Source: an uncultured virus (IMG/VR IMGVR_UViG_3300042343_001623) (lineage: Duplodnaviria; Heunggongvirae; Uroviricota; Caudoviricetes). From it: a stretch of DNA of 56,762 bases. A model generated the notes under the pieces. It saw only the letters and a list, made by a program, of their open reading frames with translations. It was not told the origin of the DNA and made no database searches. Both the position numbers and the translations under genes were made by a program. Every line of letters begins with the position of its first letter. The first letter of the stretch is position 1. The stretch is from the IMG/VR virus record IMGVR_UViG_3300042343_001623; one strand, given 5' to 3'. Shown here piece by piece: positions 3,150 to 56,762 of the stretch.

Positions 3150-3623
3150 ATGAAAGACCTGATCAAAAAAATATTAAAAGAGGAAACATCAGATCTCAAA
3201 CCCGCATTGATTAAAGCATTCTATGGTTTCATGGAAATGGAGACACAAGGTTATGAGATTTATGTTGATATTCCTGAAAACAGATTTAGATACAATCCTG
3301 AGTCCATTTGGATCATCAATCCAAAGACCAAAGGATGGATTATAGGATTACTAAAATCAGGAAAACTTTGGTATTATGGCCCACTTTACGACAATTTTTT
3401 AAATTGGTTTAATGAGGAACGTTCTGTATTTGAACAACTTATAAGGATGTGGGTGGAGGACGTTCTCAAAAGAGGGGTATTAACAATTCCGGTCCCAATG
3501 CCGGCAGCGATCCGTTCGGTGGGGGACGTTCTCAAAAGAGGGATATTAACAACACGGTTTCACTTCGCTCCAGGGGACGACCGGGTGGAAGACGTTCTCA
3601 AAAAAGGAATTAAAATATCATGA
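3150..3623 (+). CDS. Hypothetical protein with MKDLIKKILKEE leader and two C-terminal 22-aa repeats with variable halves
   Basis: 157-aa ORF; tandem paralog of 3620..4027; ATGA overlap with the next gene. Confidence 0.85.
   Translation: MKDLIKKILKEETSDLKPALIKAFYGFMEMETQGYEIYVDIPENRFRYNPESIWIINPKTKGWIIGLLKSGKLWYYGPLYDNFLNWFNEERSVFEQLIRMWVEDVLKRGVLTIPVPMPAAIRSVGDVLKRGILTTRFHFAPGDDRVEDVLKKGIKIS
3453..3615 (+). repeat. In-frame 66-nt tandem repeat: constant ~33 nt plus variable 33 nt (2 full units and a third constant half)
   Basis: GTGGAGGACGTTCTCAAAAGAGGGGTATTAACA at 3453, GTGGGGGACGTTCTCAAAAGAGGGATATTAACA at 3519, GTGGAAGACGTTCTCAAAAAAGGAATTAAAA at 3585; homologous unit at 3923-3988 and 3989 in the paralog. 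Confidence 0.9.
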
Positions 3624-4027
3624 AAGACCTAATCAAGAAAATATTAAAAGAGGAAACATCGGATATCAAACCGTCTTTGATCAGAGCATTCTATACTTTC
3701 ATGGAGATGGAAATGGAGGGTTATAACATTTATGTAGATACTCCTGAAAATAGATTTGAATACAATCCTGAATCCATTTGGATTATAAATCCAGACACTA
3801 AAGGATGGATTATAGGATTTAAAAGGTTCGGAAAACTTTGGTATAACACTCAACTTTACGAAAATTTTTTAATTTGGTTTAAGGAGGACAAATCTGTATT
3901 TGAACAACTTATAACGATGTGGGTGGAGGACTTTCTAAGAAGAAAAGTGTCAACAATACGAATGATTTACACCGATATGAATCCCGAGGTGGAGGACGTT
4001 CTCATTACAGGAATTGAACTACAATGA
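3620..4027 (+). CDS. Hypothetical protein, paralog of 3150..3623 with one 22-aa repeat unit
   Basis: 135 aa, exactly 22 aa shorter than the paralog; shares PENRF.YNPESIWIINP.TKGWIIG and SVFEQLI.MWVED. Confidence 0.85.
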   Translation: MKDLIKKILKEETSDIKPSLIRAFYTFMEMEMEGYNIYVDTPENRFEYNPESIWIINPDTKGWIIGFKRFGKLWYNTQLYENFLIWFKEDKSVFEQLITMWVEDFLRRKVSTIRMIYTDMNPEVEDVLITGIELQ

Positions 4028-4497
4028 AAGACTTAATCAAAAAAATTTTAAAAGAGGAAACAGAAGAGGTATTGGTAATACCGGGTTTTAATATTTTTCT
4101 TGATGGTGAAGAAGGATTACTTAATTTTTTGAGAAAATACGGTCATAAAAAATGGTCATTTAATGATGATTTAGATTTTTTCAACAGAAAAATTCTTGTA
4201 ACTCTTTTTGATAACCCTGAAGACCTAAAATATTTAAATAATTTGGTTGATGTTTATGGTGAACTTGATCTTTATAGGGTTAAAGATTTAAAAAGTTTAA
4301 ATAATTTAAAACGTGTGTATGGTAATATGGATATTCGTGGAACTTCAATCACATCGTTAGATAGTTTGGAATATGTTGAAGGTGCTTTAAGGGTTAATTC
4401 AAAACTTATTGAACCAATTCTTGAACGAATAAAGTCAGGGAAACTTAAAGTTGAGGAACTATATCATTATTTCGACCAAGTACCACTACCCGAATAA
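4024..4497 (+). CDS. MKDLIKKILKEE-leader protein with short leucine-rich (LxxVxGxLxL-type) repeats
   Basis: LNNLVDVYGELDL / LNNLKRVYGNMDI / LDSLEYVEGALRV periodic units; only the first 13 codons match the two upstream genes. Confidence 0.75.
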   Translation: MKDLIKKILKEETEEVLVIPGFNIFLDGEEGLLNFLRKYGHKKWSFNDDLDFFNRKILVTLFDNPEDLKYLNNLVDVYGELDLYRVKDLKSLNNLKRVYGNMDIRGTSITSLDSLEYVEGALRVNSKLIEPILERIKSGKLKVEELYHYFDQVPLPE

Positions 4498-33279: not shown

Positions 33280-33864
33280 ATGAGAGAATTAATTAAAAGA
33301 ATATTACGGGAAGAAGCTAACTGGAAGTGGGATAGTTTTGACGATGCAATTCCGTTACCTGATGGGGAGTTAAAAAAATATATTTTACATTCCACCACTA
33401 TAGATCCATTATTAATTTACAATAATGGTATTGAACCTCATTGTGCTTCAAAATCTTCACAATGGACTAACTATAGATACCCATGTAGTGTTTTCGCCAT
33501 GAATGGGTATCATGAAATATGGTCACAACGAGATACTGAAGGGGTTGTGGTTATTGATACAACATTATTAAAAAACAAATGGTGGTATGACCCAGCATTA
33601 TATAATGAAAAACAACACGATTATACCAAAATAGCAATTGTTACTGATGAAAAAATACCTGCCGATGCAATAATAGGTGTGTTGTGTATAAGAGACCTAT
33701 TTAACATGAAAAATGAATTTCATAGAACAAAATCTGATGAGTCCACACAAAAATACCTTGATGCCGTTATGAAAGAAAACTCCGAAAAATGGTCTTACGA
33801 TTGTGATGCTAAGCGTGAGTATGAGCTTGAGTATGAAAGGAAAAAGAGGAATCAGGAGTTTTAG
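33280..33864 (+). CDS. MRELIKRILREE-leader protein with a putative ADP-ribosyltransferase/Tpt1-like fold
   Basis: YILHST......IYNNGIEP ... SVFAM ... VVVID ... IVTDEKIPADAI resembles the H-x-T...I...G-L/I-x-P ... IP..AI pattern of ART/KptA-like proteins. Confidence 0.5.
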   Translation: MRELIKRILREEANWKWDSFDDAIPLPDGELKKYILHSTTIDPLLIYNNGIEPHCASKSSQWTNYRYPCSVFAMNGYHEIWSQRDTEGVVVIDTTLLKNKWWYDPALYNEKQHDYTKIAIVTDEKIPADAIIGVLCIRDLFNMKNEFHRTKSDESTQKYLDAVMKENSEKWSYDCDAKREYELEYERKKRNQEF

Positions 33865-33965: not shown

Positions 33966-34442
33966 ATGGCAAACGGAAAAACTTATGGTATAGCATTTCC
34001 TTTTAGGGATTCACTCAAAGGTGACTATTTGGCACTGACTGAAACTCCCGAACAGGAAATTAGATCCAACCTCATCCATCTTCTTCTCACAAGGAAGGGA
34101 TCAAGATATTTTCTTCCAGATTTTGGTACTCGTTTATATGATTTTATTTTCGAACCTTTGGACGGACCGACATTTGGAGCTATTAGAGCCGAAATTCAAC
34201 AAGCGGTAGACACCTACATTCCGAATTTAAAAATCGACAGTATTGAAATTATCCCTCTTTGGCAAGACACTGAAACTTTTGCTAATGGGGAATATGTAAG
34301 TGACCAACCTGAATATAAAATATTTGATATTTATAGAACAGCTGGACAAGGTGTTCAAGAATATACTGCGAAAGTAAAAATTTCTTTCACCATAACCTCA
34401 GATGCATTTGAAACAAAAGATTTTGTAATACTTAATATCTAA
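33966..34442 (+). CDS. Baseplate wedge protein (gp25-like)
   Basis: GIAFPF, IRSNL.HLLLTRKGSRYFLPDFGTRLYDFIFEP. Confidence 0.92.
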   Translation: MANGKTYGIAFPFRDSLKGDYLALTETPEQEIRSNLIHLLLTRKGSRYFLPDFGTRLYDFIFEPLDGPTFGAIRAEIQQAVDTYIPNLKIDSIEIIPLWQDTETFANGEYVSDQPEYKIFDIYRTAGQGVQEYTAKVKISFTITSDAFETKDFVILNI

Positions 34443-46200: not shown

Positions 46201-49151
46201 TGGCCACAGGAAATTACAGAGTACCTGCAAACGGAAACAACACCTTCTCGGACAATTTGGTCGGGTTTCAGGTGGTGGACGGGGGAGGTCTCACTCAAGG
46301 TAATTTTGAATTTACAAGAGGTATAGTTGAAAAGGCCAACAGAGAATTTAGTGTCGGATCTTTTTCTAAACCTATTTCATTAGAAGATTTACAAGTAAGA
46401 AGTGTTGCTGAGGCAAAAAAAATATTTGCAAAAGAATTTAGTGTCGTTCCAAACTTCGATTTATCTGAAGTAACAAATTATTCACTTTATGGTTCTTTAC
46501 AAAAAAGATTTGCGGCAACAATTCAACATGTGATTAACTTCTTCCCAGCGGCGTTAGAAGTGGATGGATTATATTATGATTATACATCTGCAAATACGGC
46601 ATATGATATTTCATATGATGCGGTAGGTAATGAAACTGAATTTAAGATAAATGTTGATAGGATCAAAAATCCTTTTGATATTGATTTCTCTCAAAATGCC
46701 GAGATGAATATTTCGGCAAGAGAACAAGTAATATCGCAATATAGAAATTTACCAGCAACATTCATAAATTATTCTTTGTTTTTGAATGGTGTCGAATATC
46801 CTGTAAATGACTTTACACCGTCACAAAACTTAACTTCGGGTTATATAACTTTTATTGTTGAAGGAAATCCATTCTCAGGAGTTACATCGACATTTGACTC
46901 CTTGGTGATTCGTTTGAATGACACCAAAACCGAAATGGTTTTTTCGGAAAATTTTGATGAACTCGGAAAATTTCTTCTAAACAGGTTAATTATCCCAAGA
47001 TATACTGCTTTTTTTAAAGTTCCAAGACAAACACCTGATGGTCAAAATTACACAGGTAATGAATATGTGACTTGGCCTTTAGATGGTCAATGGAACTTGG
47101 ATATTAGAACCAATTTATATACACAATATCTCGAAAAATTAAATACTTTGTCAGAGGAGATGGACAGATTCAAGTCCAATCTTATTTCGAGATTCTTAAC
47201 TACTGGCGCTTTTAAAGATTTCGACACGGAAGATCAAAAAGTCGAAAAAGTATTACAAATTTATGGAAGAAGTTTTGACGAATTAAAAAAATTTATTGAT
47301 GGACTTGCGTACATAAATTCTGTTCACTACAATCTACCAAACAGTGATATACCATCCCAACTATTATCTAATTTAGCAACAACGTTGGGATGGAGTGAAG
47401 ATGTTTCACAAATCACAAATGAAAACTTTCTCAATTCAATTTTTAATGTTGGTAGTAACCCGATTTATTCGGGATATTCAAGGGATTATACACCTACCGA
47501 ACTTAACTTCCAATTTTACAGAAACTTAATTCTTAACTCGGCATATCTTTTTAAATCCAAAGGAACCAAAAAATCTATCGAGTTTTTATTAAGAATGATT
47601 GGTGCTCCCGACTCTATGGTGGAATTCAATGAAACAATTTATTTAGCCGATGGTCCGATTAATGTCGAACAATTCGATGCTTACTGGTCTCAAATTTCGG
47701 GTGGGTCAAAAGTTGATGAAGTGGTTGTCTCCGACACCTCAAACATATATCAATTTCAGGGGGTACAATATTGTGCGTATACTGTCGACACACAAATTAA
47801 ATTTGTAAATTTATTTAGATCGGATTATCCGTTCGATGATGAGGGTTATCCAAAACCACCCACCAATAACAATAGTTTCTTTTATCAACAAGGTGCGGGT
47901 TGGTACGATAGAACACCATATCACGTTTCACCTCTCGAGGTTGACACCACCTTATCGGTATACACAGGAACTAACCCCGTAAACGTAACAAAATATCAGA
48001 ACTTTACCTATGGGTACAAGTATTTGAATACTTTCTCTTCTTTCCCTGAAATAAGGATGGGATTTCATCTAAAACCAATCCCCGACAATCAGAAGAGTTG
48101 GACTAATACACAACTTGGATTAAGAAGAAGTACTGTACCGGGATATGAAGCTTATTATTACCTCAATGATGATAGACTTGTATTGAATGCTAAAAATATT
48201 GATTTGAATCTGAATATTGCAAAACCATTGGAATATGATGTTTGGAATATGTCAGTTCAATATAACTATCCAATACCATCTACAGGTTTGACAATAACAT
48301 ATCCTGGCGATCCATATCCTTTCGTCATCAATCCTAAGCCGACGCAAAAAACTTTCTTCGAGTTTGCTCAGACTTTCTATAACAAGATGGTCAATGTCCC
48401 AAATAGATGGTATGATACTGATGGTAAAACTTCAGGTTATCCTCTTCTACAATCTTTGTATTGGAAATATTTGAATTCGCAAAGTACGGTCGGAATTCCA
48501 TCGAACCAATTTACATATCAAAAAATGATAGACTTCACCATTCAAATTGGTGATAGATGGATGAGATTGGTCGAACAGATGATTCCTTCAACAACTATAT
48601 GGAATGGGGGAGTCAGAGTTGAAAATACACAATTCCATAGACAAAAGTTTGTATATAGAAGACAGAGGGGTTGTCAGATTATTCCTGTACCGTGCAAAAA
48701 TTGTTGGCTTGAATGTTACATCTTCACACAAGATTGTATTGATGAGACTGTAGAATGCTCAATCTATCCTTGGTCCGTCGGGTCTTCCATTAATTCTTTC
48801 AATTCAATTCTGACGAATAGACTCGATGCGTGTTTACTATCCAATTCCTACACCTACCCCGAAGTTAATTTGAATTCTATATTATCCGAATGGTATGTTG
48901 ATTTGAAAATTGGAAACCAACAAATTGTCTTAGAAAAGTTTTATGAGGGGTATGGATCGACGGATGCACCAACAACAAATGATTGGTTGAATGCTCTTAA
49001 TACCTACCTTACAGATTTACACAGTTATGGATTTAACTATTATATAAATAATAATCAACTTACAGTCTCAAATACGAATTGTTATGAGTTATTTTCACAA
49101 GACACATTCTATTTAAGAGTAGGTATCAATTTTACGTTTAGTCTTAATTAA
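46200..49151 (+). CDS. Baseplate wedge protein (gp7/P2 gpI-like domain)
   Basis: DIPSQLL.NLA.TLGW and YLFKSKGTKKSIEFLLR.IG match the tail_P2_I-type 'L..LA...G ... .KGT..AI' pattern. Confidence 0.65.
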   Translation: MATGNYRVPANGNNTFSDNLVGFQVVDGGGLTQGNFEFTRGIVEKANREFSVGSFSKPISLEDLQVRSVAEAKKIFAKEFSVVPNFDLSEVTNYSLYGSLQKRFAATIQHVINFFPAALEVDGLYYDYTSANTAYDISYDAVGNETEFKINVDRIKNPFDIDFSQNAEMNISAREQVISQYRNLPATFINYSLFLNGVEYPVNDFTPSQNLTSGYITFIVEGNPFSGVTSTFDSLVIRLNDTKTEMVFSENFDELGKFLLNRLIIPRYTAFFKVPRQTPDGQNYTGNEYVTWPLDGQWNLDIRTNLYTQYLEKLNTLSEEMDRFKSNLISRFLTTGAFKDFDTEDQKVEKVLQIYGRSFDELKKFIDGLAYINSVHYNLPNSDIPSQLLSNLATTLGWSEDVSQITNENFLNSIFNVGSNPIYSGYSRDYTPTELNFQFYRNLILNSAYLFKSKGTKKSIEFLLRMIGAPDSMVEFNETIYLADGPINVEQFDAYWSQISGGSKVDEVVVSDTSNIYQFQGVQYCAYTVDTQIKFVNLFRSDYPFDDEGYPKPPTNNNSFFYQQGAGWYDRTPYHVSPLEVDTTLSVYTGTNPVNVTKYQNFTYGYKYLNTFSSFPEIRMGFHLKPIPDNQKSWTNTQLGLRRSTVPGYEAYYYLNDDRLVLNAKNIDLNLNIAKPLEYDVWNMSVQYNYPIPSTGLTITYPGDPYPFVINPKPTQKTFFEFAQTFYNKMVNVPNRWYDTDGKTSGYPLLQSLYWKYLNSQSTVGIPSNQFTYQKMIDFTIQIGDRWMRLVEQMIPSTTIWNGGVRVENTQFHRQKFVYRRQRGCQIIPVPCKNCWLECYIFTQDCIDETVECSIYPWSVGSSINSFNSILTNRLDACLLSNSYTYPEVNLNSILSEWYVDLKIGNQQIVLEKFYEGYGSTDAPTTNDWLNALNTYLTDLHSYGFNYYINNNQLTVSNTNCYELFSQDTFYLRVGINFTFSLN

Positions 49152-52100
49152 TGGCATTATCAACATTATCATACAGTTATACGACAGGTGCGGATTGTTA
49201 CAACACCCACGATGGTAATATACAAGTGCTCCTGAATTCGAGTGCGCCACCTATGACCGTTAATTGGGTTTCACCAAATTTGGGTTCAGATACTGTAAGT
49301 TCGGGTGATAGTCTTTTAAGTTCGAGACTAAATTTGTCGGCGGGGACATATTACGTAGAAGTAAATGATGTAAATAATCAATCAACACCGGATGTACTTG
49401 AAATAGTTGTTCAATCATATTTCATTCCTGTTTTTTCAAGAATTGTAAACACAACTTGTGGATCTGCAGATGGACTTTTAACTATAAGTTTATCGGCTGG
49501 AACCGCACCATTTAGTTTAGATTTATACAAAGACGGATCTTTATTTTCTCAAGTAACCACGAATTCAATATCATATTCATATTTCAATCTGTCGGCGGGA
49601 ACGTATTATATCTCAGGTACAAGTGGTAATGGTTGTACCGCAACAACACCAAGTGTAATTATTCAATCCTCAACAACTTTAGATTACGGTTTTTGGGTGG
49701 TAAATGATTCCAATTGTGGGGTTCACAATGGTAAGTTGACAATAACAGGGTTGACAGGAACTGCACCATATACGTATGAGTGGACTAGTTTTACTCCTGC
49801 AAGGACAACACAAACTGTCACGGGCTTAACTGCAAGTACATATTCAGTAATAGTTACAGATTCTACAGGTTGTTCTTTGGCTAAATCTCAAACTATTGTA
49901 ACATCCGATCCGTTAGGGTTGGAAAGTGCTATTGCAACCTCACCCACCTGTTTTACTAATGATGGTCAAATTCAGTTGGTTTTCACGGGTGGTGAATTAC
50001 CATTCTATTATTCAGGATCGAATGGATATAGTGAAATATCATATTCGAGGACTCTTACTCTTACAGGATTGTCGGCAGGAGAGCTGGGTATACAGGTACA
50101 AGACGTTGGACTATGTAGTTTTCTATATCAAACAAGTTTAAATACAACCAACGGATTTAATTTAATATCTCTAACCACAACAAATTCAACGTGTTCAACG
50201 TTAGGAGGGTCAGTCACCACGGTGATTGCTGGTGGAGCCGGTCCTTATACTTATACCTTAGTCAAACCTGGTGGTGATACAGAAGTACAAAGTACAAATT
50301 TTACAACAGCAACTTTTTCTTCACTTGACAGCGGAGATTACACTATAGTAATCTCAAATCCTATTTGTACATACAGCGAAGAATTTACAATTATAACACA
50401 AGATAAATTTTCAGTTGTTGTTTTACCCGATGCGGAAATTTGTCAAAATGTTAATGGAAGTATACAAGTCGACATTTCAGGTGACATTCAATATCCCGTA
50501 CAATATCAATTGTATTTTGAAAATAATATTGTAGACCAAAGTAATCAAAGTTCACAAGATTCATATACCTTTTATAACTTAGACAATGGATTATATCAGG
50601 TTGTGGTGACAGATACGAGTGGGTGTGAAATAACAAAAGATGCGGTACTACCTAACTTGGGATATCTTGATTTCTTTATTCAAGGAACCAATGGGACGGT
50701 GGGAAATACAGGATCGGCGATTGCTTATATAACGGAGGGTAATGGTCCATTCACATTTCTTTGGTCAAATGGTGAAACAACACAGAGTATTTCTAACCTA
50801 AGTGCGGGTACATATTCAGTAACCATTACCGATATACACGGATGTTCTCAAACAAAGTCGGTAAATATTATTTCGGCAACACAAATTGTATGTTATGAAA
50901 CTTACTCTGTATGTGAATCTGAATTTCAAATAACATATAACAGAAAAAGATCATTATTCAACATGTTGAATGAGGGATTTTATGACTTAACAAATGGGAC
51001 GGGTATTGATTGTACTTTAAATAGTGCAATTTTCCAAACAGATATTACAGTAAGCGGTGTCAGTTACACGGATCAATTCTATACGGCCACAACCCTAAAT
51101 GATGTACCTGGTGACAATGATTATACTGCATCAATTTCAGGTCTATTGGATTCGATTGAGGGAATCAGTTCATATACCTTTGATCTACTAAATAATAAAG
51201 TAACAGTTTTTTCTGACTGTGATAATGGAAATATTTTAGAAAATGAAACAATTTGTTTTTCAGTATCCATAGATTATGATATTAGTTGTGTTCAAAGTGC
51301 AATTCCACCAACACCATCAGTAACACCAACCACCACAGTTACACCAACGATTACATCGACACCTGCGGTTAGTCCAACTAATACCCCAACCATTACACAA
51401 ACACCAACATTAACACCTACATTAACTCCAACACCAACCGTGACACCTACAGTAACTCAAACCTGTTTCAGTCATCTTGTTTACTTAACAACGGATCCGA
51501 GAGACGCATGTTATGCGGCGGGAACGGCAACTACAGTCTATTCACCGAGTGCGGTATTGGGACCTGGTTCATATGTTTATTCAGGATCCAATTGTACCTC
51601 TCCAATTGGAGATGGAGTATTTATTAGACCTGTAACAAGTCCGATTAACCAAGATGTCTTACAGATTGTTGGAACATTGGGTATTGCGGTCTCTTACAAC
51701 TGCACGACTCCAATTCCTGCATCACCGACGGTTACTCCGACACAAACTAAGACACCAACTCCAACACCTACCAAGACACCATCAGTAGTTAGTTACACTT
51801 GTAAAGTGTATGATGTATCTGGTGCAATAAGTTCAGGGACTCTGTGGGGATATACTGATTGCGGAGGAAATGCTCAAACTATATTTGTTTTAGCAGGAAA
51901 CTCAGAAACCATTTGTGCGGTAGTTGGAAGTGTAACAATACTAAGTGGTGCGGGACCAGGTGCAATTCAAATCATGGGATCACTTTGTTTTTTACCTCCG
52001 TCACCAACTCCTTCAGTTACACCAACTAGAACACCTACCTCATCACCCATAGTGACACCATGTACACCTCATACGGTTTATATTAGTACATCTAAAACTG

Positions 52101-52303
52101 CGGTTTGTGATGGGTCTGCACCTACGACTGTTGTTTATCTATACAACACAAACGTTACGGCCGGATACAATGCATATACCAACAGTTCTTGTACGACACC
52201 CGTCCAAATAGCGAGATTTATTTCACCAACTTCGGTTTCATCACCATCAACAGTTTTCCAAGTCTCAAATCCTTCGGGTAATTTGATCAGCACCGCTTGT
52301 TAA
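49151..52303 (+). CDS. Fibre/adhesin-like protein with tandem SprB-type repeats and Pro/Thr linkers
   Basis: Repeated C...DG.I.....GG..PY.Y.W ... L.AGTY.V.VTD..GC units (e.g. GNGPFTFLWSNGETTQSISNLSAGTYSVTITDIHGCS); TPTPT tracts near 51305-51463, 51706-51785 and 51995-52060. Confidence 0.8.
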   Translation: MALSTLSYSYTTGADCYNTHDGNIQVLLNSSAPPMTVNWVSPNLGSDTVSSGDSLLSSRLNLSAGTYYVEVNDVNNQSTPDVLEIVVQSYFIPVFSRIVNTTCGSADGLLTISLSAGTAPFSLDLYKDGSLFSQVTTNSISYSYFNLSAGTYYISGTSGNGCTATTPSVIIQSSTTLDYGFWVVNDSNCGVHNGKLTITGLTGTAPYTYEWTSFTPARTTQTVTGLTASTYSVIVTDSTGCSLAKSQTIVTSDPLGLESAIATSPTCFTNDGQIQLVFTGGELPFYYSGSNGYSEISYSRTLTLTGLSAGELGIQVQDVGLCSFLYQTSLNTTNGFNLISLTTTNSTCSTLGGSVTTVIAGGAGPYTYTLVKPGGDTEVQSTNFTTATFSSLDSGDYTIVISNPICTYSEEFTIITQDKFSVVVLPDAEICQNVNGSIQVDISGDIQYPVQYQLYFENNIVDQSNQSSQDSYTFYNLDNGLYQVVVTDTSGCEITKDAVLPNLGYLDFFIQGTNGTVGNTGSAIAYITEGNGPFTFLWSNGETTQSISNLSAGTYSVTITDIHGCSQTKSVNIISATQIVCYETYSVCESEFQITYNRKRSLFNMLNEGFYDLTNGTGIDCTLNSAIFQTDITVSGVSYTDQFYTATTLNDVPGDNDYTASISGLLDSIEGISSYTFDLLNNKVTVFSDCDNGNILENETICFSVSIDYDISCVQSAIPPTPSVTPTTTVTPTITSTPAVSPTNTPTITQTPTLTPTLTPTPTVTPTVTQTCFSHLVYLTTDPRDACYAAGTATTVYSPSAVLGPGSYVYSGSNCTSPIGDGVFIRPVTSPINQDVLQIVGTLGIAVSYNCTTPIPASPTVTPTQTKTPTPTPTKTPSVVSYTCKVYDVSGAISSGTLWGYTDCGGNAQTIFVLAGNSETICAVVGSVTILSGAGPGAIQIMGSLCFLPPSPTPSVTPTRTPTSSPIVTPCTPHTVYISTSKTAVCDGSAPTTVVYLYNTNVTAGYNAYTNSSCTTPVQIARFISPTSVSSPSTVFQVSNPSGNLISTAC

Positions 52304-52304
52304 A

Positions 52305-52577
52305 ATGGCAAATATAAGATTAAACTCAATAACAGGAACTCCCCCATTCGAAGTATATGTTTCAGATGTAAACGGAAATAATCAATCTTTGGTGGGGATC
52401 GTATTAAATAGTGTACCGCCAACAGTCACAATAAATATTCCTGCAATTTTTAATAATTCACCGCAAATTGGACTTACAGTAATTGATAGTAATGGATGTA
52501 ATTTATTTTATATAATTCCCTGTAATACTGAAACAGATATTTGTTACTTTGGAATTGATATTGAGGAGCAAACATAA
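52305..52577 (+). CDS. Small protein resembling a single SprB-like beta module
   Basis: ITGTPPFEVYV ... VIDSNGC. Confidence 0.6.
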   Translation: MANIRLNSITGTPPFEVYVSDVNGNNQSLVGIVLNSVPPTVTINIPAIFNNSPQIGLTVIDSNGCNLFYIIPCNTETDICYFGIDIEEQT

Positions 52578-52628
52578 ATAAAGTATTTCAAATACCTTTT
52601 TTATTGTATTTATAAAAAAACTCCTTAA

Positions 52629-53669
52629 ATGGCTGAATATATTCTTAGAATATCCTCTAACTCAAACGCGAAAGGTCCTTTCGATGTTTATACTGGTGAT
52701 ACATCTATAACTTCACCAATTTATTCATCGGCGACTTTCGACGATATGATTGTGGGGGTGACTTTGGATTTACCTGGTTCACCTTCGGGAGTTGTTTACC
52801 AAATTTATGTGGTCAATAAAGAAGAAGGATGTGACGACAACTTTCAACAGCAGGTTGTCCTTGTTACAGAAACAACAACTTCTCCTGTTACACCAACTGT
52901 TACACCAACCAATACACCAACACCATCTATTACCCCATCCTTTACTCCGACACCTACAGTTACACCTACCCCTGGTCTCAGCCCAACTCCAACACCTACT
53001 ATCACTCCAAGTATATCCGAAAGTCCGACACAAACTCCAACTCCGACACCTACACCGAGCGCGACACCATTCAGTTATCAAGCCTACCTATTCCCCGAAC
53101 CACAAGATATTACATCGAGAAACGCTATAGGACAATATATGTATGACGGAGCAAAAACTTGGTTTGGTTGGGGTAACTCGGGTGTTCCTGGAAGTTTAAA
53201 TTATTCTGATAATATGGACTACTATGCTCACTACAGTGGATTTACAAACGGAAGTTCAGGAAACTTTATTACACAAGTTTCTTCACTCAGTAGTGCAATG
53301 TTCCAATCATCGGGTAATGACCCATATGGATGTCCAATTAACCAATATGGTTTTGGAACCATTAATATAAATAGTTCTTTGGTCAATACAAGTGTTAAGT
53401 ATTTCTATTCGATATGGTTGCCACTCGGTGGTATGAACGGAACGATGTCTGAAATGACTGTCAATGTTGGAACAAACCCATGTTCATATAATATTGGTGC
53501 GGACTTAATACCTGATAGTATAAAACAAACAAATGTCACTGTTACTTCAGGTGCTGCTATTCCGGCTGGTACATATAGGGTACTTTGGATAGATCCAAAC
53601 TTACATATTCCTAACACATTACCACTCGGAACGGGATTATATTTTTCTTCAGGTGAATACGTTCCATAA
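52629..53669 (+). CDS. Two-domain protein with a long Pro/Thr linker, putative virion appendage
   Basis: About 65-aa [13 protein letters not shown] tract (approx. 52868-53070); own TATTTATA motif. Confidence 0.7.
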
Positions 53670-55378: not shown

Positions 55379-56762
55379 ATGGCTATTATATTAAACGATA
55401 ATTTAGAAACCTTTTCACCCAAACCGTTAGATGAACGATATGGTCCGTATACAAGTGTTACAGAAGCAAACAATAGTATACTATATGCGAATAGGTATTT
55501 AGGATTAACCGTTGGTATAATTACAGGAACAACAACTCAGGAGGGTCCAAATGATTATCCGAGATATTTGACTGTTGAAAGTGGGGTCACAGAATATTGG
55601 TACTGGACTGGTATTACTGACTTGGATTTAGTTATCAAGACAATTGATGTTTCTTCAGGGTCAAGTGGATCTTCTGGAACATCAGGTTCTTCAGGATCAA
55701 GCGGAACATCAGGTTCTTCAGGATCAAGCGGTACATCAGGAAGTAGTGGATCTTCTGGAACATCAGGATCTAGTGGAACTTCAGGTTCTTCAGGATCAAG
55801 TGGTACTTCAGGAAGTAGTGGTTCTTCAGGAACCTCAGGATCTAGCGGTACTTCAGGTTCTTCAGGGTCAAGTGGTACTTCAGGAAGTAGTGGATCTTCA
55901 GGAACATCAGGATCTAGCGGTACGTCAGGAAGTAGTGGTTCTTCAGGGACATCAGGGTCAAGTGGAACTTCAGGAAGTAGTGGAACTTCAGGTTCTTCAG
56001 GATCAAGTGGTACTTCGGGATCTAGCGGGTCAAGTGGGACATCAGGATCATCTGGTTCAAGTGGTACATCAGGATCTTCAGGTTCGAGTGGTACATCAGG
56101 ATCTTCAGGTTCGAGTGGAACATCAGGAAGTAGTGGATCTTCAGGTTCGAGTGGAACATCAGGAAGTAGTGGATCTAGCGGCACATCAGGTTCATCAGGT
56201 TCAAGTGGAACATCAGGGAGTAGTGGATCGAGTGGTACATCAGGATCTTCGGGTTCAAGTGGAACATCAGGTTCTAGTGGATCGAGTGGTACATCAGGAT
56301 CGTCAGGATCAAGTGGAACATCAGGTTCTTCGGGAACTTCAGGGTCAAGTGGGACATCAGGTTCTTCGGGAACTTCAGGATCAAGTGGAACATCAGGTTC
56401 TTCGGGAACTTCAGGATCAAGTGGAACATCAGGTTCTTCGGGAACTTCAGGGTCAAGTGGGACATCAGGTTCTTCGGGAACTTCAGGGTCAAGTGGGACA
56501 TCAGGTTCTTCGGGAACTTCAGGTTCTTCAGGATCCAGTGGAACTTCAGGTTCTTCGGGATCTAGTGGAACTTCAGGATCTAGTGGGACTTCAGGAAGTA
56601 GTGGATCTTCTGGAACATCGGGATCCAGTGGAACGTCAGGATCTAGTGGAACATCTGGTTCTTCAGGGTCAAGCGGAACTTCAGGAAGTAGTGGATCCTC
56701 AGGAACATCGGGTTCAAGTGGTACTTCAGGAAGTAGTGGAACCTCAGGGTCTTCAGGATCAA
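55379..56762 (+). CDS. Putative fibre protein with a long (S/T)-S-G triplet repeat; 3'-partial
   Basis: Not in the ORF track. ATG at 55379 gives MAIILNDNLETFSPKPLDERYGPY...RYLGLTVGI...EYWY, then SSGSSGSSGTSG... open to the window end. Confidence 0.9.
   Translation, partial: MAIILNDNLETFSPKPLDERYGPYTSVTEANNSILYANRYLGLTVGIITGTTTQEGPNDYPRYLTVESGVTEYWYWTGITDLDLVIKTIDVSSGSSGSSGTSGSSGSSGTSGSSGSSGTSGSSGSSGTSGSSGTSGSSGSSGTSGSSGSSGTSGSSGTSGSSGSSGTSGSSGSSGTSGSSGTSGSSGSSGTSGSSGTSGSSGTSGSSGSSGTSGSSGSSGTSGSSGSSGTSGSSGSSGTSGSSGSSGTSGSSGSSGSSGTSGSSGSSGTSGSSGSSGTSGSSGSSGTSGSSGSSGTSGSSGSSGTSGSSGSSGTSGSSGTSGSSGTSGSSGTSGSSGTSGSSGTSGSSGTSGSSGTSGSSGTSGSSGTSGSSGTSGSSGTSGSSGSSGTSGSSGSSGTSGSSGTSGSSGSSGTSGSSGTSGSSGTSGSSGSSGTSGSSGSSGTSGSSGTSGSSGTSGSSGS
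55652..56762 (+). repeat. 9-nt periodic coding repeat (about 123 X-S-G triplets) with a 6 x 36-nt higher-order block at 56303-56518
   Basis: Gly codons stay in 9-nt phase at the positions checked (55658, 56225-56279, 56702); unit TCAGG(A/G)TCAAGTGG(A/G)ACATCAGGTTCTTCGGGAACT occurs six times. Confidence 0.95.

Follow-up and report, generated by a model that had tools for sequence, protein, structure and literature searches.

Tandem alternation of a conserved 12-residue unit with unrelated 10-residue cassettes in a family of T4-type phage proteins

Two adjoining genes of an uncultured virus (IMG/VR record IMGVR_UViG_3300042343_001623; Caudoviricetes) carry at their 3′ ends short in-frame direct repeats that are nearly identical in DNA and that enclose segments of fixed length without evident relationship to each other, and the question is how such a pattern arises and is kept inside a protein. 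The genes, here gene 1 and its paralogue gene 2, lie in the stretch of 56,762 nucleotides (nt) that was analysed, in the following called the window. It is part of an 88-kb viral record that is 29% complete according to CheckV; a 110-kb contig of the same phage overlaps this record at 99-100% identity, and about 140 kb of the phage, whose genome has 35% guanine plus cytosine (GC) and is only 29-36% complete, are in hand. An earlier note on this DNA had postulated a mechanism that rewrites or inserts short segments at the C-terminus and had argued that it fits neither a diversity-generating retroelement (DGR) nor an array of clustered regularly interspaced short palindromic repeats (CRISPR). 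The second part is borne out: neither a DGR nor a classical CRISPR array accounts for the locus, and drift does not explain it either. For the first part we propose, at about even confidence, a translated, modular and hypervariable phage protein that exchanges its cassettes through recombination within the repeats, in the manner of the gp38 adhesins of T-even phages.

A repeat search of the window returned a 35-nt repeat in five copies at positions 3452, 3518, 3584, 3922 and 3988 (spacing 66, 66, 338 and 66 nt), and a degenerate form of the pattern gave five matches where 0.02 were expected from shuffles. The figures on which the earlier note was built were reproduced: the constant halves are alike at 31 of 33 positions, the first two variable halves at 13 of 33 and the other pairs at 10 and 12 of 33, where composition alone predicts 8.9. 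Six positions are common to all three variable halves, which encode IPVPMPAAIRS, TRFHFAPGDDR and IRMIYTDMNPE, and the GC count is 21 of 33 in the first two and 13 of 33 in the third. The division into 33 + 33 nt had to be corrected to a repeat of 36 nt followed by an insert of 30 nt (Table 1), because conservation across the family extends to the base that precedes GTGG and to the Thr/Ile codon that follows ...ACA. The imperfect palindrome described for the constant half, GAGGACGTTCTC, is present in the window's repeat but is not conserved, a relative (L033) reading GAGGATGCTCTC.

Gene 1 has 268 homologues at an expectation value (E) ≤ 0.001. The best 120 matches of each of two word-indexed protein searches (268 and 220 matches) yielded 217 distinct proteins, and 215 of these parse as an N-terminal domain, zero to six units of a 12-residue repeat plus a 10-residue insert, and a degenerate terminal repeat or a conserved tail. 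Proteins with 0, 1, 2, 3, 4, 5 and 6 units number 17, 123, 47, 20, 4, 3 and 1, respectively, and together contain 314 insert instances, 241 of them unique. An exhaustive profile search widened the family to 528 cluster representatives at E ≤ 0.001, with lengths up to 611 amino acids (aa) and up to 19 repeat motifs; the distance from motif to motif is dominated by 22 aa (451 cases versus 65 at 23, 43 at 24 and 26 at 21 aa). The repeat consensus is VEDVLKRGVxTT in the window's clade and VEDTIQNGVKxT in a sister clade, and three large related genomes each carry one or two genes of the family. No Pfam, PHROGs or PADLOC family matches the array protein. A scan of viral contigs for the VEDVLNRGVSST clade gave no match, and the literature, searched by the repeat and leader peptide strings and by keywords for in-frame CRISPR-like or hypervariable phage repeats, returned nothing on the family among the papers listed; the outline of a paper on the mining of repeat proteins (PMC10392669) names other systems. 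With this array, the “conserved handle, hypervariable payload” design takes a new, tandem form in a large, uncharacterised family of phage proteins. A 401-aa open reading frame (ORF) of a 281-kb related phage (G006, 203212-204414) with a run of EKIVEV repeats also matched a loose form of the motif, without being related to the array family.

The cassettes are replaced whole rather than gradually mutated. In pairwise comparison of the 241 unique inserts, 18 pairs agree at 8-9 of 10 residues, one pair each at 6 and at 7, and all remaining pairs behave like shuffled controls, which leaves 222 unrelated families; the 283 unique inserts of the sister clade fall into 235 unrelated DNA families with a small tail of intermediates. 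The sharp border between conserved and scrambled sequence, and the rejection of drift as its cause, thus hold across the 217 homologues. The border is also visible between close relatives: gene 1 and its orthologue on contig L012 are 90% identical in the DNA of the N-terminal domain, their inserts are unrelated, and the boundaries coincide exactly with the repeat edges. A derivation of inserts by frameshift was rejected, as comparison of the 283 inserts in shifted registers and as reverse complements equalled the shuffled control. One alternative would be ordinary tandem duplication followed by rapid divergence of linkers that are under no constraint, purifying selection acting on the helix motif alone. 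It can invoke an old protein-repeat motif whose distant members have loops of varied length and ordinary composition (GC at codon positions one to three of 0.45, 0.39 and 0.30) as well as conserved old AT-rich inserts such as that of gene 2. It is already contradicted by the bimodal insert identity without intermediates, by unrelated inserts in orthologues at 90% nucleotide identity, by GC-rich inserts in an AT-rich genome and by the rare codons kept at synonymous sites of the repeats, and we regard it as very improbable.

The array is read as protein, and its frame is kept. From 80 DNA loci of the sister clade we took every pair of adjacent repeats irrespective of frame and obtained 352 unique inserts, of which 347 are in frame and open, one contains a stop codon and four shift the frame. 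Their lengths are quantised in codons (30 nt, n = 282; 33 nt, n = 42; 36 nt, n = 10; 27 nt, n = 7; 24 nt, n = 5), and in the other five frames 34-65% of these inserts would be interrupted by a stop. In the window's clade, a random-DNA model fitted to the insert peptides expects 61.5% of 10-codon inserts to be free of stops; only a handful of the 215 proteins end within a would-be insert, and some of these ends may be contig ends. Several members (P0079, P0105, P0108 and P0113) continue in frame into a further C-terminal domain after the array. A few others run on past an insert in a shifted repeat frame, for example with ...WRTFLIERF, and therefore errors of insert length do occur but are rare. 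Relative to the model, Trp (77 versus 43.6) and Phe (96 versus 54.2) are enriched about 1.8-fold and Cys is depleted about 0.55-fold (39 versus 70.3); judging from these residue biases, the insert peptides are seen by selection. A 152-nt contig from an RNA library covers positions 3755-3900 exactly, which is no proof of transcription.

Translation is at odds with a reading as an untranslated, phage-borne CRISPR mini-array that happens to be open, a reading to which the sharp boundaries and the CRISPR-like geometry would lend themselves. An accidental ORF does not account for 347 open inserts out of 352, for the in-frame downstream domains or for an association with the N-terminal domain that persists down to 40% identity, and no Rfam family reaches its threshold. 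A remote DGR target would share the sharp boundaries too, and DGRs resemble the array in that variation is confined to a short C-terminal stretch of a phage protein next to invariant flanks. Unlike in DGRs, whole segments are replaced, and we found neither a reverse transcriptase nor a template nor an adenine-specific pattern. The reverse transcriptase family RVT_1 is absent from five records, including the 110-kb contig of the window's phage, and both RVT_1 and Cas1 are absent from four further, larger relatives, one of them 281 kb and 96% complete. The template copy that the earlier note suggested looking for was not found within 88 kb at up to 6 mismatches, and the differences are not restricted to adenines, the inserts being plainly unrelated (10-13 of 33 positions shared, 8.9 by chance). 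We consider a DGR target or a mini-array the least probable of all explanations.

The search for enzymes was broader than these two families. No known DIVERSIFYING enzyme was detected, as the 118 ORFs over about 140 kb contain no reverse transcriptase, Cas or integrase family in scans with Pfam and PADLOC (88-kb record: 59 ORFs by Pfam, 47 of them also by PADLOC; additional 51.6 kb: 59 ORFs by Pfam only). The statement that the window itself holds no reverse transcriptase or cas gene is correct by Pfam and PADLOC, and an enzyme capable of the targeted rewriting proposed earlier was not found in the sequence scanned. As in CRISPR arrays, near-identical direct repeats within the typical 23-47 nt alternate with unique spacers of similar length, here 36 and 30 nt. 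A CRISPR array would be non-coding and free of frame selection, which the open frames, in-frame downstream domains and residue biases contradict. Neither cas genes nor host arrays with the same repeat turned up in the 140 kb of this incomplete phage, in the four related records or in reference genomes; searched in exact and in back-translated form, the repeat has no match among the reference genomes of 185,579 species of bacteria and archaea.

To judge from codon use, the repeats are constrained as nucleic acid as well as protein, because rare codons are kept at synonymous sites. In the sister clade, different repeats agree in their synonymous codons with an identity of 0.83 when they belong to one locus and of 0.75 when they come from different loci, compared with 0.50 expected from background codon usage, and GGG (201 of 277; background 11%), GTG (162 of 277; 12%) and ACC (159 of 277; 18%) predominate. 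The window's clade keeps the codons GTG GAG GA(C/T) GTT CTC AAA AGA GG(G/T) even between proteins whose N-terminal domains are only 40% identical. A folded RNA is not apparent: the small, weak hairpin of the repeat does not surpass shuffled sequences (z −0.3 to −1.2), z for the 139-nt array is 0.28, and Rfam gives nothing at gathering score in the whole window and only weak matches in E-value mode. One of these, a partial match to the Twister-P5 ribozyme at 3469-3504 (end of repeat 1 and insert 1; E 0.35, 17.9 bits versus a gathering score of 37.6) on CCGGTCCCAATGCCGG, is probably due to chance. In three phage genomes the repeat core was not found dispersed at other sites. The repeats of a single array have lineage-specific variants in common, whereas the inserts that separate them are unrelated.

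Comparison of relatives indicates how fast cassettes change and how they move. The share of protein pairs with at least one insert in common falls from 70 of 87 at 95-98% identity of the N-terminal domain to 46 of 142 at 90-95% and 58 of 688 at 80-90%, and is below 1% at lower identity, so that inserts turn over on the scale of 5-10% amino-acid divergence of that domain. Nevertheless, 33 protein pairs share an insert at less than 60% identity of the N-terminal domain. The same insert is found with different neighbours, positions and terminal sequences; HNGSEEVRGQ, for instance, has five different right-hand neighbours. The window's two GC-rich inserts occur singly (P0005 and P0008) and in other combinations, and insert 1 follows a third insert in P0007, which corresponds to L019. 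Terminal repeats of hybrid type were also found, and because of these the recombination joints would lie inside the repeats. On short time scales the array is stable: a strain of about 99% identity spans the whole locus with 10 differences, of which the 9 listed all fall outside the two GC-rich inserts, and three other viral contigs are identical in the inserts. Rapid rewriting within populations was not seen in a comparison with lake metagenomes that used assembled contigs, in which rare variants are invisible. Contigs often end in the repeats, which fits co-existing variants, but assemblers stop in this way at any repeat.

According to its Pfam matches the phage is a large T4-type myovirus with a gp20 portal, a gp23 capsid protein, a gp21-type prohead protease and a large terminase. 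Further matches comprise gp25 and other T4 baseplate proteins, tail sheath and gp32 as well as a ribonucleotide reductase, a B-family polymerase and PhoH. Homologous recombination is efficient in T4-type phages. For this reason, and because it is documented for the gp38 motifs (PMC3157838), we infer recombination inside the repeats. A folded N-terminal domain of about 100 aa carries a tandem array in which a conserved 12-aa unit (36 nt) alternates with a 10-aa cassette of arbitrary sequence (30 nt). The nucleotide-conserved repeats would be short recombination modules, and the T4-type replication and recombination machinery would use them to swap, add and delete cassettes between paralogues and co-infecting phages. 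Recombination between repeats of different arrays, which the earlier note had not considered, would explain much of the pattern that it ascribed to targeted rewriting; the sharp replacement that it described stands.

In the gp38 adhesins, too, the N-terminal portion is conserved, and the C-terminal portion is a succession of hypervariable segments set apart by short conserved motifs. Sequence exchange in gp38 takes place in or near these glycine-rich motifs and draws on a large shared library (PMC3157838). Alternation and mosaic arrays of this type are present in the family studied here, with breakpoints that appear to lie in the repeats. In contrast to gp38, the array protein has true tandem repeats, in 1 to about 19 copies and with a strict period of 36 + 30 nt, its variable parts resemble random sequence, and its repeats are kept at synonymous sites with rare codons. 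Homology to gp38 was not detected, as the array protein has no Pfam or PHROGs family and no significant fold match.

Several observations weigh against recombination as the complete answer. Recombination only reshuffles, and a closed, ancient pool of cassettes predicts intermediate pairs and an AT-rich composition, neither of which is seen in the window's clade. Because intermediate pairs are missing and the GC content at codon positions one and two is 0.52 in the inserts versus 0.33 in the N-terminal domain, a source of new cassettes is still required. The origin of brand-new cassettes, which look like random or foreign DNA of about 52% GC, is not explained by recombination. Moreover, unequal crossing-over would homogenise whole units, yet only the 36-nt part is homogeneous. 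The exchange events themselves are read from sequence comparison, and while gp38 binds to the tail-fibre tip and to a receptor, an adhesin or binding role of the array protein would follow only by analogy. Structure prediction gives no support for a binding surface: AlphaFold models the product of gene 1 with a mean predicted local distance difference test (pLDDT) score of 83.3 and predicts the 100-aa domain with confidence, whereas the array part of a member with six repeats and five inserts has pLDDT < 50 for residues 96-208, so that the exposed loop envisaged in the earlier note is unreadable. For the fold of the N-terminal domain, Foldseek found nothing in the PDB at E ≤ 0.001, a wide search with VIA-align gave at best Z 5.3 (N-terminal domain of MCM8/9), which is below the range that the tool calls meaningful, and the ESM Atlas contained no usable match. 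Distant members carry long arrays whose loops vary in length and have the composition of ordinary proteins, and the longest arrays also contain longer, conserved loops of protein-like character; fundamentally, the family is one of repeat proteins.

The composition of the inserts bears on their source. In the window's clade the insert amino acids fit random DNA with A 0.26, C 0.24, G 0.28 and T 0.22 (about 52% GC), and because the spread of insert GC at codon positions one and two (standard deviation 0.108) equals the binomial expectation (0.112), the source appears compositionally uniform. Sister-clade inserts have GC 0.42, again with binomial spread; by codon position the values are 0.45, 0.39 and 0.30, which is ordinary codon periodicity and moderately above background genes (0.41, 0.30 and 0.24). 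An origin from the phage's own DNA is ruled out within the range searched: nothing was found in the phage's own 88 kb, and a search with 283 inserts in 940 kb of related phage DNA and in two large related genomes disclosed no source. The 940-kb search did return six short matches, produced by 3 inserts and confined to the short loci L138 and L151, one at a locus end. Protospacer-like matches, which the earlier note had proposed to look for, were not found: in IMG/VR, the 24-nt cores of both window inserts are restricted to arrays, and the window inserts have no match in cultured phages and plasmids.

To our knowledge, the only process that gives unrelated inserts of fixed length between duplicated repeats is CRISPR adaptation. 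It is conceivable that a process resembling spacer integration acts on this protein-coding gene and places exactly 30 nt of foreign or new DNA between duplicated 36-nt repeats, either through co-opted host CRISPR adaptation or through an unknown integrase of the same geometry. The repeats would then be nucleic-acid recognition sites. We rate this as unlikely, though as the main rival to recombination. In a more narrowly CRISPR-like form, which seems doubtful to us, the written DNA would most plausibly come from the host, Cas1-Cas2 of the host would act in trans or an unrecognised phage integrase would take their place, and insertions that break the frame would be selected out.

The geometry speaks for such integration. 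In Flavobacterium columnare, repeats of the type II-C and VI-B systems measure 36 bp and have GTTGT at their leader-distal end, and newly acquired spacers are 28-32 bp long, in most cases 30 bp (PMC8092290). The reverse complement of the window's repeat likewise starts with GTTGT (GTGGT-free), at the end away from the side of the N-terminal domain, and Bacteroidota arrays of these types share with ours the 36-bp repeat, unrelated inserts of mostly 30 bp, a degenerate last repeat and gain or loss of inserts among relatives. The phage carries Bacteroidota marks, since Pfam identifies a protein with SprB repeats, a sorting domain of type IX secretion and the barrel of a TonB-dependent receptor, all of which point to a Bacteroidota host. 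Consistent with integration, the inserts are unrelated, of fixed length and homogeneous, with a clade-specific mean GC (0.52 versus 0.42) as expected if each clade samples its own host. Shared lineage variants of the repeats within an array around unrelated inserts and the degenerate terminal repeat fit as well. In at least six array pairs the extra insert is proximal to the N-terminal domain and the distal insert is common, and the rare frame-shifted repeats would be expected from occasional insertions of 29 or 31 nt.

On the other hand, the window's array differs from CRISPR in being translated, embedded in a protein between domains and scrambled in order between relatives, and in having no cas genes, bacterial reference repeats or protospacers in the searches made. 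Integration of this kind is opposed by the lack of Cas1 or a reverse transcriptase in about 140 kb of the phage or in the four related records, by the occurrence of the repeat in 0 of 185,579 species' reference genomes and by the absence of an insert source in IMG/VR outside arrays, in cultured phages, plasmids, the phage's own 88 kb, 940 kb of related DNA and two large relatives. Polarity is weak, the first insert being shared in 16 of 71 arrays and the last in 21 of 71. Lengths of 33 and 36 nt are common (12% and 3%) and 29 or 31 nt rare, which resembles selection at the codon level rather than the ruler of an integrase.

As to function, the array protein probably serves, by analogy, as a module for specificity or binding, either carried on the virion or delivered to the host. 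The array genes lie directly upstream of the tail sheath and baseplate block. In P0284, a homologue of the ORF at 33280-33861, next to the gp25-like gene, is fused in front of an array-family protein (BLASTP: 48% identity over 188 aa, E 4e-61), a Rosetta-stone hint that ORFs of this type and array proteins may work together. Because of this location and this fusion, the sequence suggests a virion-associated specificity protein. Cleavage by the T4 prohead protease at capsid-targeting sequences follows an L/I-x-E rule. Since the leader of gene 1, MKDLIKKILKE, ends in L-K-E and the phage encodes a T4-type prohead protease (Peptidase_S77 in Pfam), a packaged and injected protein is suggested as an alternative.

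The same protease enters a further explanation, which takes the 12-aa units for sites of recognition or cleavage and the 10-aa cassettes for active or decoy peptides that are set free by the prohead protease or in a cyanobactin-like manner. Cyanobactin precursors of the PatE type have hypervariable cores of fixed length between recognition sequences that are identical in DNA, and their cassette number varies; the alternation of conserved flanks with hypervariable cores of fixed length, the variable copy number and the L-K-E end of the leader in a phage with Peptidase_S77 would fit this analogy. The “leader”, however, would not be short as in such precursors but a long domain of 100 aa predicted with confidence, in a phage context, and maturation proteases or cyclases of known peptide pathways are absent from the Pfam matches of the 118 ORFs of this incomplete genome. 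The repeat of the window's clade contains no L/I-x-E site, and the near-random composition of the cores is unusual for bioactive peptides. A multi-core precursor is accordingly improbable in our view.

The leader is of interest in itself. The tandem genes 3150-3623, 3620-4027 and 4024-4497 share the same first 13 residues, MKDLIKKILKEET, and a near-identical start of 11-13 residues occurs in four genes of different kinds (3150-3188, 3620-3658, 4024-4062 and 33280-33315; MKDLIKKILKEET / MRELIKRILREE), with a variant form at 33280. In lake metagenomes the contig depth is several-fold higher exactly over the leader stretches at 3150, 3620 and 4024, and the contigs continue into many unrelated sequences, and for these reasons the leader is a widespread 5′ cassette. 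The internal proteins of T4, too, are encoded by small, highly variable genes in tandem that have in common an initial peptide of roughly 11 aa with L-x-E at its end; many members of the array family lack such a leader, namely those starting with MSKDL..., L032 and L033.

The coordinates of the features are given in Table 1. The N-terminal domains of genes 1 and 2 are 83% identical over 300 nt. The body of gene 3 is leucine-rich-repeat-like by eye and has a weak Pfam match to Recep_L_domain below the cut-off (E 0.0046).

Table 1. Positions of the array genes, their parts and further genes in the 56,762-nt window
Feature	Position	Strand	Description
Gene 1	3150..3623	+	157 aa; N-terminal domain of about 100 aa, then repeat-insert-repeat-insert-terminal repeat; from the ORF list
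Shared N-terminal leader MKDLIKKILKEET	3150..3188	+	From direct-repeat family and motif scan
Repeat 1	3452..3487	+	36 nt, encodes VEDVLKRGVLTI; first base is the last base of a Trp codon
Insert 1	3488..3517	+	30 nt, GC 0.67; also in another array context in L019
Repeat 2	3518..3553	+	36 nt; 33/36 identical to repeat 1
Insert 2	3554..3583	+	30 nt, GC 0.63; sole insert of homologues P0008 and P0024
Degenerate terminal repeat VEDVLKKGIKIS and stop codon	3584..3623	+	Overlaps the ATG of gene 2 (ATGA at 3620)
Gene 2	3620..4027	+	135 aa, paralogue of gene 1
Gene 2 degenerate repeat	3922-3957	+	From repeat search
Gene 2 insert	3958-3987	+	AT-rich, GC 0.40; conserved in P0056 and P0061
Gene 2 terminal repeat	3988-4027	+	From repeat search
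Gene 3	4024..4497	+	157 aa; same 13-aa leader, different repeat-containing body, no array
ORF	33280..33861	+	194 aa; just upstream of the gp25-like baseplate wedge gene (33966-34439; gp25 domain by Pfam)

Genes similar to gene 3 occur elsewhere, and a related contig (L017, 443-2599) has four of them in tandem (140-219 aa) with LQSVGGxLDIRGTQIKSL-type repeats in varying number. The genes with leader and leucine-rich-repeat-like body form a second variable family at the same locus. Upstream of the window in the same phage (G001), two host-like envelope proteins are encoded, a TonB-dependent-receptor-like outer-membrane barrel of 388 aa (L035, 18805-19968) and a 530-aa protein with a type IX secretion C-terminal sorting domain (L036, 2590-4179). 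Within the window, Pro/Thr-rich tandem repeats with periods of 12-30 nt (ACACCAACA...) extend over 51300-53000, in and beyond the gene of the 1050-aa SprB-repeat protein (49151-52300). The end of the window (55650-56762) consists of more than 1 kb of imperfect tandem repeats of TCAGGATCTAGTGGAACT-type units with periods from 9 to 144 nt, which run off the end and, judged by eye, would form a long Ser/Gly/Thr-rich tract. At least half of the words sampled from the stretch are present in each of 18 metagenome runs from lakes or fresh water, and the phage lineage turns up repeatedly among lake metagenomes with filing dates from 2020 to 2024.

If cassettes are only shuffled, the family described here would be the clearest tandem case of the conserved-motif handle and variable-loop payload known from T-even adhesins, in a large family from phages of freshwater Bacteroidota with hundreds of unrelated cassettes. 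If a dedicated mechanism writes new cassettes, it would add a third natural route to the targeted diversification of phage proteins, the other two being DGRs and fibre genes that are inverted or shuffled, and the protein would be a natural scaffold for the display of random peptides. Should that mechanism resemble spacer integration, a virion or injected protein would become a natural, evolving display library of random 10-aa peptides.

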